64,000 nt of DNA from a phage, in the sequence record PZ583739.1; one strand, written 5' to 3'. Under the pieces are notes generated by a model that made no database searches, was not told the origin of the DNA, and saw nothing but the letters and a program-made list of their open reading frames with translations. How positions within the stretch are numbered: the first letter of the stretch is position 1; each line of letters begins with the position of its first letter. The position numbers were made by a program, and so were the translations under genes. Shown here in pieces: positions 45,322 through 50,597 of this stretch.

Positions 45322-45586
45322 TTCCAATCTCCTGCAATATTTTTCTCATACTACGCATGGTAGCTTTATGTTCTTGGCCATGGTATATCAATGCAAGGAG
45401 TGCTTCAATTCGCTCCTCAGGGACCTTCTGGCCAGCCTTAATGCTCATGGCTGTTGTTCTTACCGCTAACAAGTAACTTCGCTTCCTGTCGTTATCTGGG
45501 AGCCCCTGCACCTTCCTCAGGCCTGCTTCCATAATACACCGTGCGACATTTTGCAGATTAACTAAACTTCCGTCAGACATAATCAT
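45302..45586 (-). CDS. hypothetical protein
   Basis: 94-aa ORF. Confidence 0.45.
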   Translation of the reverse strand: MIMSDGSLVNLQNVARCIMEAGLRKVQGLPDNDRKRSYLLAVRTTAMSIKAGQKVPEERIEALLALIYHGQEHKATMRSMRKILQEIGNDELQS

Positions 45587-45634
45587 ATTTTCACCTCAAA
45601 GACATATTAACACACTTTTTGTGGCTTGTACATA

Positions 45635-45656
45635 ATAAAAAAGGACCCGAAGGTCC
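45635..45656 (-). terminator. rho-independent terminator
   Basis: GGACC-cgaa-GGTCC with flanking A/T runs. Confidence 0.55.
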
Positions 45657-45662
45657 TTTTGG

Positions 45663-45815
45663 CTACTCAACTTTATAGACTTGCCCATATGCGGTATAGT
45701 ATTCACCATCCCAGGTCTCGCACATAATGGTGACAAAGGATGCAAACAGAGGTTTAGTCTCGGCCCACAGATAACCGTATTCGCCATTTGACAACGTAAC
45801 CCACCACTTTTTCAT
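45663..45815 (-). CDS. small protein (50 aa), not in ORF track
   Basis: ATG 45815 after SD GGAGAAG; MKKWWVTLSNGEYGYLWAETKPLFASFVTIMCETWDGEYYTAYGQVYKVE. Confidence 0.35.
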   Translation of the reverse strand: MKKWWVTLSNGEYGYLWAETKPLFASFVTIMCETWDGEYYTAYGQVYKVE

Positions 45816-45857
45816 GGACTTCTCCTATAAGACGGGAGAATATTCTCCCGTATCTAT

Positions 45858-47690
45858 TTATAGCGTCGCATTCATCCAGTCTTTACGCTGCTGGGAATCT
45901 TTACCGAATAGCATTTCGAACAGTTCTTTCCAATTGTCGGGCAATTGAACAACTTCGAATACTGGCTCGAGCAATACGCGTTTGTACTCTGAATCTTCCA
46001 GAGAACCAAGCCCCTTGATATATCGAATGGTATGCTTCGGAAGTTTATCCTTAGCTTCTTCGTAATCAGGAAGAGAATAGAACCATTCTTGTTTATCTTT
46101 GAGCTGTGCAATAATAACAGGAGTTTTCACAAAGCGAATTCGTCCTTCATGGAACAGCTCTGGCCAGTTACTGAAAAACGCCAATAACGATGGATAGATA
46201 CTACCAACACCATCCACATCCGCATCTGTCATGATAGCAATGTTTCGGTAATTCATATTCTCGGCCGGTTGTCCAATCGTTAAACCAGTAATCGCACACA
46301 CATCAAAGGCTTCAGCGTTCTTCATAACTTCAACAGCTTTCAGACCCCATGTGTTTTTAAACTTACCACGTAACGGATAAGCACCTTGCAATTCACGGTC
46401 ACGAACCTTGATAAACGGACCCGTTGCAGAATCTCCTTCGGTCAGGAATAGAGTCGTTTCCAGCTTATCATTACCCCATTCGTTGGCTTTGATATGCTTT
46501 TGTACCTTGGCCTTTGAAGCTTTCTTATTTGCTTTAGTCTCTGCTGCTTTCTCTGCAGCCAATTTACGAGCCAATGCAGCTTCAATGATAGGCGTCAGAA
46601 TAGCTTCTGATTTTAACAACGAACCAGCTAACTTTTTGCCATCAACCTGGATATGTGATTTAATTTCACCGGCAGGTGAAGTCAATCGCTCCTTAGTCTG
46701 GGAATCAAATCGCATGTTCTTCATATTGCGAATAAACATCAACAATGTAATACATTCTTTAACGCGTGCTTTGGTTACTTCAATTTTATACTTGCGTTTA
46801 ATCGCCGGGATTAACACATCACACATTTCATCCATAACACATTCAATATGGTGACCACCATTTTTTGTATGGATTCCGTTAACATAAGTCACATGACGGA
46901 AACCATCGGGTGACCGACCAATTGCAATTGAGCAATTATCTTGTTCCTGAATAATGATTTCATCATCGTATTGCTTGGCATATTTTTTAAAGTGACCTTG
47001 CACTTTTTTACCATTGAACTTGAATTCGATATCCGGATAAATGACTGCAAGAGTCTGGATTTGGTCAAGCATAATTTGGACATATGTTTCGTCAAAACCA
47101 GACGTTTCAAAATTCGAAAAATCCGGAATAAATTTAACTTTAGTTCCTTGCAACTTTGATGGTTTTGATTTCCATGAAATATTATCAAGTCCATTTGAAC
47201 AATTAACGGTTAATTCATTTTTCCCATCTGATGTAGTGCCTGTGAACAATATTGAAAAAATATTGGTAAGACTGGACCCAACTCCGTTCATCCCAGTGGT
47301 AACACGATTTGCATCATCACTAAAGTTTCCACCCGAACGAACCTTGGTCCATGCAGCGACCGGCCCAGGAATTTCTTCGCCTTCTGGGGTTACAACAATC
47401 GCCTGTGGAATGCCTCGACCATTATCTTCAACGGTCACTTCGTTTGTTTTGATATCAATATTCAATGAAATTTTGTTTGCAAATTTAAAATTGGTGCGAA
47501 TAGCTTCATCAATAGAGTTATTTGCAATTTCTTCGATTAATTTAATTAAACCTGGAACGTATTGAACCTTTTTATATTCACCAAACAGAAAAATTTCTTT
47601 GTCTTCATTGGTAACACTACCGATGTACATTGATGGGCGAGCTTTTACGTGAGCTACATCAGAAAGGATTTGAATTTCATTCTTAATCAT
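45858..47690 (-). CDS. 39: DNA topoisomerase II large subunit (fused gene 39+60 equivalent, GyrB-like)
   Basis: 610-aa continuous ORF; ATPase motifs ...EDNGRGIP..., TOPRIM ...TLFLTEGDSA..., C-terminus continues through the region that is gene 60 in T4. Confidence 0.9.
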   Translation of the reverse strand: MIKNEIQILSDVAHVKARPSMYIGSVTNEDKEIFLFGEYKKVQYVPGLIKLIEEIANNSIDEAIRTNFKFANKISLNIDIKTNEVTVEDNGRGIPQAIVVTPEGEEIPGPVAAWTKVRSGGNFSDDANRVTTGMNGVGSSLTNIFSILFTGTTSDGKNELTVNCSNGLDNISWKSKPSKLQGTKVKFIPDFSNFETSGFDETYVQIMLDQIQTLAVIYPDIEFKFNGKKVQGHFKKYAKQYDDEIIIQEQDNCSIAIGRSPDGFRHVTYVNGIHTKNGGHHIECVMDEMCDVLIPAIKRKYKIEVTKARVKECITLLMFIRNMKNMRFDSQTKERLTSPAGEIKSHIQVDGKKLAGSLLKSEAILTPIIEAALARKLAAEKAAETKANKKASKAKVQKHIKANEWGNDKLETTLFLTEGDSATGPFIKVRDRELQGAYPLRGKFKNTWGLKAVEVMKNAEAFDVCAITGLTIGQPAENMNYRNIAIMTDADVDGVGSIYPSLLAFFSNWPELFHEGRIRFVKTPVIIAQLKDKQEWFYSLPDYEEAKDKLPKHTIRYIKGLGSLEDSEYKRVLLEPVFEVVQLPDNWKELFEMLFGKDSQQRKDWMNATL

Positions 47691-48483
47691 TTTTGACCTC
47701 TAAATTTTTAGTATAACCTAAACATTTCCAACTGGACCATTTTACATCATCGGAATTGCAGCGTTTTCGTAATGTAGGATAACTAATACCAAGAACTTCG
47801 GCGGCTTCTTTTCGGGTTGTGAATATGACCCCATTTATAGAGTACGTTTTAGCCTCGGGATTTTTATCACCAGAGAATAATTTTGATAATTTATCTTTGT
47901 GTTCAAGAGAAAGATGTTTGCCAAAGAAATGATGATTTTCGCCTGCTTTACGCAGGGAGACATTATAACCAAAATCATCGGGGTATGGCTTTCTTTTAAC
48001 ACCAGTTCCATATATTCTATTATATTCGGTTTTATCTAACAGTTTATTCCGTTTTTTAACGGCTTCGCCTTTAAGTAAATTAATTTCCGCTTTTCTTGGA
48101 TGATTGGACATTGTGTCACCACCAAAATCCGCCAACGTTATATTATAACCGTTTTTGATAGAATTTAATTCAGTTATCCAGAAACTTTCTCTTTTCAAGA
48201 AATATTTTTTATTATAAACTTCTATATTTTCTATTAGTTTGCATACAAATGATTCTTTACCGTATTTGTCATATGCAAACTGTAAATGGCTGTTTATGCC
48301 AACACCTTTGGATAAATTCCGAAAATGCGTGGCAATTCTACGATGAAAATCATTTGAACTTCCTATATAATATTTTTGAGATATTAAATTATAAATTATA
48401 TAAATCCCACTATTTCCACTCGATGGTGGAATATAATCAGGAAATTTATTTTTTATTATCCCGAATACTTCATTAATCATCAT
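47683..48483 (-). CDS. free-standing GIY-YIG homing endonuclease (mobile element)
   Basis: 266 aa; N-terminal GIYIIYNLISQKYYIGSS...R...N; basic linker with repeated motifs and C-terminal helix-turn-helix-like ...TTRKEAAEVLGISYPTLRKR; stop overlaps gene 39 start by 8 nt. Confidence 0.8.
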   Translation of the reverse strand: MMINEVFGIIKNKFPDYIPPSSGNSGIYIIYNLISQKYYIGSSNDFHRRIATHFRNLSKGVGINSHLQFAYDKYGKESFVCKLIENIEVYNKKYFLKRESFWITELNSIKNGYNITLADFGGDTMSNHPRKAEINLLKGEAVKKRNKLLDKTEYNRIYGTGVKRKPYPDDFGYNVSLRKAGENHHFFGKHLSLEHKDKLSKLFSGDKNPEAKTYSINGVIFTTRKEAAEVLGISYPTLRKRCNSDDVKWSSWKCLGYTKNLEVKND

Positions 48484-48528
48484 CTTTCCTCTTGTGTATG
48501 GAGGTATTATAAGTCACATGTTTTAAAG

Positions 48529-48546
48529 CAAAAAGGCCCGAAGGCC
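48529..48546 (-). terminator. rho-independent terminator upstream of the homing endonuclease gene
   Basis: GGCC-cgaa-GGCC with flanking A/T runs, between the 48549 gene and the HEG start. Confidence 0.5.
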
Positions 48547-48548
48547 TT

Positions 48549-48947
48549 TTATTTGAATCGAAGCTGCTCTAACATTTTAATAGCTTGTAGACGGCCGGCT
48601 TCAGTTTTAACCGTAATAATAACATCGCCGCCAGTAACAACGATATCCTCTTTTGATTCCTGTTCGGTTATTTCAGAATCACATTCCGGGACTTCTTCAA
48701 AATATTTAAATTCATCACCAAAAATAAGACCGGTTCCATTACGACTATGGAAAGAAAATCCAGTTCCATCGATAGTACTAAATTCCGTAACAACATTTGC
48801 TTCCATCTTAGTGACTGAAAACTCTTTGGTAGTAACCAAATCAATGATAGAGGTTCCCTGTTGGTTCAAAATGCTACCAGGCATACCAACATGTTTAAGG
48901 AAGCCATCTAAATCTTTAATGTGATAACTCTTTCCAATTTTAAACAT
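48549..48947 (-). CDS. hypothetical protein
   Basis: 132-aa ORF. Confidence 0.5.
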   Translation of the reverse strand: MFKIGKSYHIKDLDGFLKHVGMPGSILNQQGTSIIDLVTTKEFSVTKMEANVVTEFSTIDGTGFSFHSRNGTGLIFGDEFKYFEEVPECDSEITEQESKEDIVVTGGDVIITVKTEAGRLQAIKMLEQLRFK

Positions 48948-48954
48948 AATATCC

Positions 48955-49215
48955 TCATTCGAATCGGATGGTTGAATTCTTAAACAGCAATCCAGAACAA
49001 ACAGTTCCTTTAACTTTCTTACCAGTTGGCCCTACGGCCGTAAAGCCTGTGTGTTGGAAATCATCTTCAGAGCAACCCAACCAGTTATAACCGGTGATTT
49101 GGATTTGTTCATAGCCGTTTGCATCTAATACACGAATGGCATTATCTGCATCAGTACAACTAGCCAATGAAACCGCCAGTACCAGTGCTGCAATAGAACG
49201 ATTAATGTATTTCAT
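48955..49215 (-). CDS. small lipoprotein
   Basis: 86 aa; signal peptide with lipobox LASC; several Cys in mature part. Confidence 0.5.
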   Translation of the reverse strand: MKYINRSIAALVLAVSLASCTDADNAIRVLDANGYEQIQITGYNWLGCSEDDFQHTGFTAVGPTGKKVKGTVCSGLLFKNSTIRFE

Positions 49216-49221
49216 ATATCC

Positions 49222-49395
49222 TCACTTCAAAAGGTCGTAAAAACCGCCATTAACATGTTTAGGAGCCGAGACTAACCGAACAGCCAGCCGATGGCAATCA
49301 GGACAAACATCATTATCTCTTTCAGAGATTTTCTTGATTTTTTCGTATTCTTTCGCGCAGTCATTGGATTGACATTTGTAATCATAAAGTGGCAT
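49222..49395 (-). CDS. small zinc-ribbon protein (57 aa), not in ORF track
   Basis: MPLYDYKCQSNDCAKEYE...CPDCHRL: paired CxxC motifs; its TGA stop sits in the lipoprotein gene SD. Confidence 0.4.
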   Translation of the reverse strand: MPLYDYKCQSNDCAKEYEKIKKISERDNDVCPDCHRLAVRLVSAPKHVNGGFYDLLK

Positions 49396-49396
49396 G

Positions 49397-49771
49397 TTAT
49401 TCCTTAAAGTGTGCTTTCAACATCTGGTAAACGGTCCAGGCTTCAGAGTTATTAGAAATGGTGATTTTAGTCAAAGGGAATTCGCTTGGTTCAAATGCTT
49501 CATCAGCGTCTTCGCATTCATCTTCAGTATCGTCATCTTTTTCTTCTTCAAAGAAACGACGCTCATCTTCCTTTATGAATATTCTCTCTATTCCACCGGT
49601 CGAAAATTCTATCCGATATACATCACCACCTTCAATTCCGACTGGTCTAAATCCTTCACCATTGATTATAGCATCAGCTATATTATCATTATCAGAGCAT
49701 AACAAACGAAATCTGCTTTCAGCAACATTATCTTTAAAATAATACCATTTATCAGTTTCAAATTTCAACAT
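49397..49771 (-). CDS. hypothetical protein with strongly acidic segment
   Basis: 124 aa from ATG 49771 (SD AAGGAGA); contains EDERRFFEEEKDDDTEDECEDADEAFEPSE. Confidence 0.45.
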   Translation of the reverse strand: MLKFETDKWYYFKDNVAESRFRLLCSDNDNIADAIINGEGFRPVGIEGGDVYRIEFSTGGIERIFIKEDERRFFEEEKDDDTEDECEDADEAFEPSEFPLTKITISNNSEAWTVYQMLKAHFKE

Positions 49772-50036: not shown

Positions 50037-50597
50037 TTAGGCACGATGAATATCAGCATACTCAACGATAAAGCTTTCAGGAACCACCTTAAAGGTTCCA
50101 AGGAACACGATGTTATAGAGCTTAACGCCTTCTTCAACCCACTGGTCTGTGATGTAACCAGACATGCTAGTGGTTTCATAAGTACCAAAAGGTTCGTCAA
50201 CATATTCAAACGGTTTAGGTGAAACAAAAAAGACACCTTTGCCCAATTTCCATTTAAAATCAACCCCAACATGAGACTGGTCAATGGTTTCAACGTCTTG
50301 AGCAATTACGCCACGGATATCATTGCTTTCGCACACATATCCATCATGGGATTCAACTTCTTCAACCACAGGGAGGTTGGCGGCAGTAATAGCAGTTGAT
50401 TCCAGGAATTTAGCACGAACATAAGCGAATTGAGTTTCAGTCTGACCATTTTTGGGAATGATACGCACCTTTACTTCATTATCAGGATGGTCAACAAAAA
50501 TATCAGCACGAATACTGACAACCTCAACAAAACGTCCAGCGGCTCTTGAACGAGATTTTTTGGATACGCGAACGATTTCGCCAGCTTCAACTTTCAT
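50037..50597 (-). CDS. hypothetical protein, paralog of the 50677-51429 product
   Basis: 186 aa; C-terminal GYITDQWVEEGVKLYNIVFLGTFKVVPESFIVE matches GWVTDQWIEDGVELLNVVHAGEFTVVPRSMVVE in the neighbour. Confidence 0.5.
   Translation of the reverse strand: MKVEAGEIVRVSKKSRSRAAGRFVEVVSIRADIFVDHPDNEVKVRIIPKNGQTETQFAYVRAKFLESTAITAANLPVVEEVESHDGYVCESNDIRGVIAQDVETIDQSHVGVDFKWKLGKGVFFVSPKPFEYVDEPFGTYETTSMSGYITDQWVEEGVKLYNIVFLGTFKVVPESFIVEYADIHRA

Follow-up and report, generated by a model that had tools for sequence, protein, structure and literature searches.

A candidate free-standing GIY-YIG homing endonuclease gene inserted in the first codons of topoisomerase gene 39 of a T4-like phage

The stretch of phage DNA considered here (sequence record PZ583739.1, 64,000 nucleotides (nt), below called the window) belongs to Gaprivervirus, a genus of T4-like coliphages that includes VR7, SP18, RZ, UPEC01 and P479, and is identical to no record in the phage collection. 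At the 5' end of its topoisomerase gene 39 the window contains an open reading frame (ORF) of 266 amino acids (aa; 47683..48483, minus strand), which the ORF list, Pfam, PHROG and tblastn identify as a free-standing I-TevI-like GIY-YIG homing endonuclease gene (HEG). Judged from the comparative sequence analysis and from analogy with studied systems, it is likely that this ORF encodes an active or recently active enzyme of the I-TevI branch, which would spread by breaking HEG-less alleles of gene 39 in mixed infections. Free-standing HEGs are a recognised force in the mosaicism of T-even phages, and the category of the element is thus known. The position of the element and the way it is joined to an essential gene are described below.

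The structure of the insertion follows from comparison with UPEC01, which lacks the ORF. The empty site consists of a hairpin, the motif tttTGCTTTA, a spacer of 12 nt, TATAAT, and then acctccatacacaaGAGGaaagATGATGATTAAT followed by AATGAAATT. The window matches this sequence through ATGATGATTAAT and continues with GAAGTATTC as the endonuclease ORF. Thus the first four codons of the ORF, ATGATGATTAAT (48483-48472), are the gene 39 start of the ORF-less relatives. BLAST places the boundaries of the insertion at 48472 and 47690, and the insert relative to the empty site comprises 790 nt (48480..47691 or, equivalently, 48471..47682). It is accompanied by two copies of the 8-nt direct repeat ATGATTAA on the minus strand. 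The left copy (48473..48480) is seen in the alignment of the window with UPEC01, and the right copy (47683..47690) is the 8-nt overlap formed by the start codon of gene 39 and the stop codon of the HEG, so that the ORF ends 8 nt inside gene 39, as the original prediction had it. The final codons of the ORF, GAGGTCAAAAATGATTAA, contain a new GAGG 6 nt ahead of the gene 39 start, giving the pattern GAGG-N6-ATG within the last 20 nt of the ORF. This GAGG (47697..47700, minus strand) is a candidate Shine-Dalgarno box of gene 39 inside the 3' end of the HEG. The new gene 39 start, ATGATTAAGAATGAAATT, is the same as that of T4 in its first 18 nt.

The region upstream of the insertion contains the regulatory signals. 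A site resembling MotA-dependent middle promoters (48506..48533, minus strand) is formed by tttTGCTTTA (48533-48524), a 12-nt spacer and TATAAT (48511-48506). It fits the middle-promoter consensus (a/t)(a/t)(a/t)TGCTTtA at a distance of 12+/-1 bp from TAtaaT (PMC2988021), and no sigma-70 -35 element is present at this site. The same site is shared by UPEC01, P479 and T4, and the RZ sequence matches up to the -10 region. The Shine-Dalgarno box GAGG (48488..48491, minus strand) has the same sequence in the window as in UPEC01 and P479; it belongs to gene 39 in the ORF-less relatives and to the HEG here. Further upstream, fold and conservation reveal a terminator-like hairpin of the preceding 132-aa ORF (48531..48550, minus strand), AAAAGGCC-UUCG-GGCCUUUU, with a predicted energy of -11.1 kcal/mol and z of -2.4, although a simple terminator scan did not call it at 48550-48531. 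The hairpin, the MotA box, the -10 element and the Shine-Dalgarno box precede gene 39 also in T4 and in the empty-site phages. Thus they are ancestral signals of gene 39 itself and lie outside the mobile insert. The original prediction had placed a UUCG hairpin at 48529-48546, immediately upstream of the endonuclease ORF. The hairpin is indeed present (48550-48531, the predicted interval being its GC core and U run), but it is not adjacent to the ORF, since the promoter and the Shine-Dalgarno box are situated in between, and it cannot be considered a feature of the element, as it is retained in the ORF-less relatives and in T4.

These alignments show that the HEG sits within the first codons of gene 39, where it is read from the ancestral middle promoter, Shine-Dalgarno box and start codon of that gene. 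Hence an insertion at the junction had been located correctly, but it is not simply intergenic: it lies inside gene 39 and has taken over its translation start. The region does not seem to involve a masking RNA structure: folds around the ribosome-binding sites of the HEG and of gene 39 were no better than those of shuffled sequences (z +1.1 and +0.8, respectively). A weak pairing of four base pairs (CCUC/GAGG) occurs in the start-region folds, and the empty site has the same pairing.

The ORF starts with an N-terminal extension of 24 residues, MMINEVFGIIKNKFPDYIPPSSGN (48412..48483, minus strand), delimited by tblastn and by comparison with UPEC01. A second ATG of the ORF occurs at 48480, and initiation there would yield 265 aa. 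Between codon 3 and the GIY motif there are no in-frame ATG, GTG or TTG codons. Since there is no alternative in-frame start before the GIY motif, the protein must be made as an N-terminal fusion with gene 39 codons. The extension is unchanged in ten variants of the protein, with the exception of positions 21-22. Among the tblastn matches listed, all those from genomes other than P479 align from residue 25 onward, and thus the first 24 residues seem to be peculiar to this lineage, as far as it has been sampled.

One possibility, which we put forward tentatively and hold to be somewhat less probable than its negation, is that these observations belong together: the HEG would have captured the promoter-proximal ribosome-binding site and start codon of gene 39, being translated as a fusion to the first four codons of that gene after the loss of any start of its own, and translation of the topoisomerase would depend on the Shine-Dalgarno box and start that the 3' end of the HEG provides. 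In that case the loss of the element by simple deletion would come at a cost, an addiction-like lock-in. The mobile unit would then be the HEG together with a functional ATPase and transducer module, about 1.9 kb in all, and the element would drive the exchange of domains of an essential enzyme between genera, at a hotspot for which three unrelated nuclease families compete.

The assignment of the ORF to the GIY-YIG superfamily is supported at the level of sequence and predicted structure. Pfam finds the GIY-YIG domain (PF01541) at residues 25-114 (E 3.5e-11, 43.7 bits with the cutoff of 22.6), confirming the predicted identity of the 266-aa ORF, and the protein falls into PHROG 314, 'homing endonuclease' (1.6e-36). 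The pair of motifs that defines this alpha/beta domain of some 90 residues is present as GIY (26-28), ten residues and YIG (39-41). The catalytic domain as outlined by phmmer and Foldseek covers residues 25-118 (48130..48411, minus strand). Among solved structures, phmmer ranks the two parts of I-TevI highest: residues 25-121 match the catalytic domain of I-TevI (1MK0/1LN0) with E 1.8e-19, and in this alignment Y28, Y39, R49, H53, E99 and N114 of the ORF correspond to Y6, Y17, R27, H31, E75 and N90 of I-TevI. The catalytic arginine, glutamate and asparagine and the accompanying histidine are thus all present (R49, E99, N114, H53), and they are invariant in ten close variants and eight distant homologues. 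The AlphaFold model has a mean pLDDT of 66.5; it is 79-89 in the catalytic domain, about 75 in the helix-turn-helix, and below 50 in the linker residues 116-123 and 160-191. The modelled catalytic fold superimposes on 1LN0 with TM 0.92 and rmsd 1.1 A at 44% identity (Foldseek).

The DNA-binding region (residues 176-252; 47728..47958, minus strand), defined by Pfam, phmmer and Foldseek, consists of a NUMOD3 element and an I-TevI-type helix-turn-helix. NUMOD3 is found at residues 176-200 (E 1.2e-5) and I-TevI_DNA-bd at residues 201-252 (E 1.6e-5), the latter scoring 25.1 bits, slightly under the gathering score of 27. This half of the protein is similar to 1I3J (phmmer E 2e-4 for residues 178-249; Foldseek probability 1.0). 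The protein therefore has the two-part build of I-TevI, with a C-terminal DNA-binding module and a long flexible linker. The C-terminal half (residues 119-266) is basic (pI 9.6, 29 K/R against 19 D/E), in agreement with the original description of a 'basic, repeat-containing' region, but the repeats are weak, as only one stretch of NUMOD3 is significant. There is no zinc finger in the protein: it contains only three cysteines (C81, C242, C254) and no CxC...CxxC pattern. A zinc finger in the linker is not universal among I-TevI-like bipartite homing endonucleases.

The Rfam scan of positions 45500-49500 at E<=1 found no group I intron or other relevant RNA element. Since there is no Rfam intron match, the endonuclease gene is considered free-standing and not part of an intron; gene 39, which follows the ORF, is intact and has a start of its own. 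I-TevI itself, encoded in the td intron of T4 (PDB 1LN0/1MK0 for the catalytic and 1I3J for the DNA-binding part), is 36.5% identical to the ORF protein over residues 25-249 (tblastn) and shares with it the N-terminal GIY-YIG domain, the long linker modelled with low confidence, the NUMOD3-type element and the C-terminal helix-turn-helix. However, the ORF of the window differs from I-TevI in several respects. Firstly, it is not intron-encoded and resides at gene 39, not at td. Secondly, the I-TevI zinc finger (C151/C153/C164/C167) is missing from its linker. Thirdly, it has the 24-residue extension that opens with gene 39 codons. Finally, I-TevI has a late promoter and a sequestered ribosome-binding site, whereas the ORF has a middle promoter and a good Shine-Dalgarno box.

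Outside the lineage itself, the closest of the matches listed are free-standing genes located between nrdA and td in T4-like phages of Acinetobacter and Klebsiella, with 38-43% identity. The examples are AbTZA1 gp123 and KpV477_238. They are similar to the ORF in being free-standing, but they occupy another locus and are oriented opposite to their neighbours, and none of those listed aligns to the N-terminal extension. BLASTP with the three junction nuclease types and a motif scan revealed no further HEG copies within the window.

The occupancy of the junction is polymorphic. A probe of 391 nt spanning the empty junction of UPEC01 matches 25 records over its full length with at least 95.4% identity, and these records represent 22 Gaprivervirus phages. 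In the phage collection the ORF is present in P479 only (99.7% nucleotide identity), where it is annotated merely as 'hypothetical protein'. Four more phages carry another nuclease, so that there are 22 phages with an empty site, four with a different ORF and one with the same ORF. T4 itself is empty at the gene 39 5' junction. Comparison of the gene 39 upstream regions had been suggested as a check of the original prediction; the ORF could have been present in all relatives, and it is not. The arrangement as a free-standing HEG, claimed in the same prediction, is further supported by this insertion polymorphism together with the intact I-TevI-like catalytic residues, purifying selection (see below) and the lack of an intron.

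In addition to the phage collection, a large protein collection contains the ORF in one 90% cluster with nine variants, all of them full length. A carrier contig of 1988 bp (L009) has the same overlap of the HEG and gene 39. Nothing close was found in IMG/VR: 16 loci show at most 33% identity over comparable lengths in unrelated contexts, and one 40% match covers 54 residues.

The four phages with a different nuclease are RZ, TH15, VR26 and VR7. In the same gap they contain an unrelated ORF of 231-252 aa with a C-terminal Endonuclease_7 domain (PF02945), located at L003:2295-3002 in RZ, L004:2307-3002 in VR7, L005:1677-2435 in VR26 and L007:91-798 in TH15. These ORFs start as cctccATG directly after the -10 element, without a Shine-Dalgarno box. 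A third, again unrelated, ORF of 226-227 aa, similar to seg genes, is found at the same junction in phages of other genera: Bp7 (Dhakavirus, L013:828-1508), G2285 (Mosigvirus, L015:825-1508), TG1 (Tegunavirus, L006:1825-2508) and Klebsiella phage Biddle_MM4 (L014:827-1507). It carries a FYIGST motif and two NUMOD3 repeats, of which Pfam reports NUMOD3 alone. The end of this ORF also overlaps gene 39: it reads ND* over ATGATTGA with an 8-nt overlap in Bp7, G2285 and TG1, and SD* over GTGATTAA in Biddle_MM4. The labels of the seg-like ORF are inconsistent, being 'HNH endonuclease' in RefSeq and 'GIY-YIG' or 'hypothetical' in GenBank. Orthology between the ORF of the window and the GIY-YIG-annotated junction ORF of TG1 was considered and rejected, since the BLASTP similarity (E 0.089) is of the NUMOD3 type only and Pfam finds NUMOD3 only in the TG1 protein.

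The Endonuclease_7-domain and seg-like ORFs are thus similar to the HEG in lying, as it does, between the promoter and the start of gene 39. However, they are unrelated proteins (PF02945, or NUMOD3 only), they start after the -10 element without a Shine-Dalgarno box, and they are tied to gene 39 5' alleles other than that of the HEG. In Biddle_MM4, gene 39 (L014:1500-1560) appears to start with GTG (GTGATTAAGAACGAAATT, VIKNEIQILS...) inside the stop codon of the upstream ORF, and the start given in the record, 60 nt further down, probably truncates the protein.

Gene 39 of the window (45858..47690, minus strand) encodes an unsplit large subunit of topoisomerase II, 610 aa, with Pfam domains HATPase_c, DNA_gyraseB, Toprim and TOPRIM_C, and the predicted fusion of the topoisomerase gene is thereby confirmed. 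It contains in one piece what T4 has as genes 39 and 60, split and with remnants of mobA; gene 39 of the window lacks mobA and the 50-nt bypass cassette, and gene 60 does not occur as a separate ORF. The first part of the gene, from nt 1 to about 1140 (aa 1-380; 46550..47690, minus strand), forms a divergent block linked to the HEG, as seen in sliding identity profiles and BLASTP. The block (46500-47690 in the profiles) has 58-83% nucleotide identity to the empty-site relatives UPEC01 and P896, whereas both flanks have at least 93%. It encodes the ATPase and transducer domains, and its boundary lies in the linker ahead of the Toprim domain. The protein encoded by the block (aa 1-380) is 68% identical to that of UPEC01 and 82% identical to that of Klebsiella phage Biddle_MM4 (BLASTP). 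Since it is closer to the Klebsiella phage than to the empty-site Gaprivervirus, the block looks imported from outside the genus.

The Gaprivervirus alleles of the gene 39 5' region fall into three classes that follow the state of the junction: class U is empty, class R has the Endonuclease_7 ORF and class W has the GIY-YIG ORF. VR7, a carrier of the Endonuclease_7 ORF, is of class U apart from the first ~45 nt of gene 39; this hints that the target or immunity determinant of the Endonuclease_7-domain ORF may be located there. Classes W and R have 66-78% identity in nt 1-720 and 87-98% in nt 720-1150, and from nt ~1200 on all classes are at least 92% identical. Nested tracts that share one anchor, the junction, would be the expected trace of repeated break-initiated gene conversion at this point. 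That HEGs beside essential genes mark recombination boundaries is established (PMC2988022; PMC10055350).

The comparison with P479 suggests recent movement. A candidate conversion tract (46800..48548, minus strand) stands out in the sliding identity profile, with at least 99.3% identity to P479 from 46800 to 48450. This shared patch extends over the HEG, some 0.9 kb of gene 39 and another 65 nt on the upstream side; in its flanks the identity is 93-98% to the left and 77-95% to the right. Just upstream the two phages differ structurally, as the 132-aa ORF is absent in P479. The divergent gene 39 block and the patch shared with P479 have the appearance of co-inherited flanks, a signature seen by comparison only.

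L009, which represents a more distant carrier lineage, allows one to estimate selection. The ORFs differ by 25.5 synonymous and 9.5 non-synonymous substitutions, giving dN/dS of 0.08, and from this codon comparison the endonuclease ORF is shown to be under purifying selection. All ten natural variants are full length and have invariant catalytic residues. The dS between the window and L009 is 0.46 in the gene 39 block and 0.18 in the HEG, which in this single comparison is compatible with movement of the HEG between related W-type alleles. At the junction of the HEG and gene 39 (47655-47758) about 100 nt contain no difference from L009, whereas elsewhere there is one difference every ~12-20 nt.

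By analogy with I-TevI and the Seg enzymes of T4 (PMC2988022), the following mechanism may be proposed. In a mixed infection, a monomer of the protein would bind via its C-terminal NUMOD3/helix-turn-helix module to the 5' end of a HEG-less gene 39 allele, or just within it. The tethered GIY-YIG domain would then introduce a staggered double-strand break, and recombination with the genome that carries the HEG would repair it. The alleles would regain homology only in the promoter region upstream and at nt ~1150 of gene 39 downstream. Because the alleles are only ~65% identical over 1.1 kb, repair must reach the promoter region on one side and go beyond nt ~1150 on the other, so that the HEG and the N-terminal module travel together; the HEG and the block coding for the ATPase and transducer domains would be copied as one unit of ~1.9 kb. 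Carriers would be immune due to the splitting of the site by the insertion, to the divergent gene 39 5' sequence, or to both. Free-standing HEGs, co-conversion and marker exclusion have been described (PMC2988022). We are far less confident about any one position of the target than about the mechanism as a whole. At ~63% allele identity the loss of a short motif is expected by chance, and this applies to the CNNNG rule of I-TevI as a predictor of the cleavage site.

Several observations weigh against an active or recently active homing endonuclease. There is a single HEG-linked allele class, and the target site cannot be narrowed within ~1.2 kb. The near-identity patch shared with P479 and the mosaic could be the product of ordinary recombination among T-even phages, in which the HEG was carried along. 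The good Shine-Dalgarno box and the middle promoter are unusual for a potentially toxic nuclease; most free-standing HEGs of T4 have weak translation-initiation regions or none (PMC2988022). The zinc finger, which determines the spacing in I-TevI, is missing, and the cleavage geometry of I-TevI may not be transferable. Finally, the lineage is rare, comprising one phage record and one protein cluster of nine variants, with nothing close in IMG/VR.

Two other explanations deserve consideration. One is that the nuclease has been domesticated and is no longer mobile, being kept for the benefit of the phage as a repressor at the promoter or start of gene 39 in the style of I-TevI, or as a weapon against co-infecting relatives. 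Strong purifying selection (dN/dS 0.08) and the position of the ORF directly behind the promoter and Shine-Dalgarno box of gene 39 would fit this, as would the look-alikes of the empty-site sequence that persist at both junctions; I-TevI is known to autorepress through an operator resembling its homing site (PMC2988022). However, a useful housekeeping role is hard to reconcile with the presence of the ORF in only one of the 27 phages of the collection; repression alone would not need the catalytic residues, which are fully conserved; and the nearly identical patch shared with P479 within different flanks points to recent movement. We therefore consider domestication unlikely.

The other explanation is that the mosaic at the 5' end of gene 39 results from ordinary homologous or illegitimate recombination among co-infecting T4-like phages and the ORF is a passive passenger, inactive or irrelevant. 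Early regions of T4-like phages are indeed generally mosaic, and there are other patches of low identity nearby, for instance at 50250-50550. On the other hand, each of the three allele classes goes with one junction state, every divergent tract has its anchor at the junction, none of ten variants of the ORF is decayed, and three unrelated endonuclease families have settled at the same spot, all of which makes a mere passenger improbable.

Finally, the ORF might be ancestral, the empty sites having arisen by precise deletion between the ATGATTAA repeats, a reading which a scar ATGATGATTAAG on a window-type gene 39 5' allele in empty-site phages would fit, and with which it agrees that the product would read ATG-ATGATTAA, that gene 39 of the empty-site phages does open with an unusual double ATG (ATGATGATTAAT) and that T4 reads GTGATGATTAAG at this position; but it is highly implausible, as the first ~1.1 kb of gene 39 at empty sites is not the W allele (58-73% identity) and hence cannot derive from it by deletion alone, the site is empty in T4 and in 22 Gaprivervirus phages, and the closest relatives of the ORF are found at another place in other genomes, between nrdA and td.

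Given insertion of a homing endonuclease gene as the preferred explanation, the element can be compared with other such systems of T4. The genes segA-G are likewise free-standing GIY-YIG genes beside conserved genes of DNA metabolism, with polymorphic presence, co-converted markers and ORF overlaps (PMC2988022); SegF at genes 56/69 and SegG at gene 32 are examples of 'intronless homing'. However, the ORF of the window is nearer to I-TevI than to the seg-like junction ORF of other genera (E 0.089 with TG1, see above). Besides, a number of seg and mob genes of T4 overlap the ORF that precedes them and have no initiation region, whereas the HEG of the window owns a strong one and has the essential downstream gene coupled to it. 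T4 MobA, an HNH HEG associated with a 50-nt bypass at gene 39/60, is similar in that a homing endonuclease exploits the same topoisomerase gene, and the MobA element carries replacement host-gene sequence (bioRxiv 10.1101/2022.08.31.505936). It differs in belonging to another nuclease family and in being inserted at nt 1399-1419, where it splits the gene, whereas the insertion in the window occurs at codon 4-5 and leaves the gene unsplit. Literature searches brought up no account of a HEG at the gene 39 5' junction; the one related paper concerns the MobA element at nt ~1400.

As a natural experiment the locus is compact. Its junction is found in three states among ~27 near-identical genomes, each state with its own gene 39 5' allele; the candidate conversion tracts are nested and share a single anchor; and the element first uses the translation start of an essential gene and then supplies another in its place. 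The locus could be used for measuring co-conversion across a heterology block of 65% identity, and also for testing whether HEGs transfer entire enzyme domains from one phage genus to another and whether a selfish gene becomes more stable by capturing a translation-initiation region.

Two further features of the neighbourhood may be mentioned. The 132-aa ORF situated between gp39.1 and the hairpin (48549-48947, minus strand) belongs to PHROG 622 and has goF-like similarity in its C-terminal part. It is present in RZ and UPEC01 and missing from P479, P896, VR7 and VR26, and the same hairpin follows either way. Thus a second gene whose presence varies among relatives adjoins the HEG site on its upstream side. 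The patch at 50250-50550, within an ORF at 50037-50597 in the motB region, is a local mosaic, where the identity is 77-86% with P479, UPEC01 and P896 and 100% with RZ, and the surrounding sequence is 92-100% identical to all four phages.

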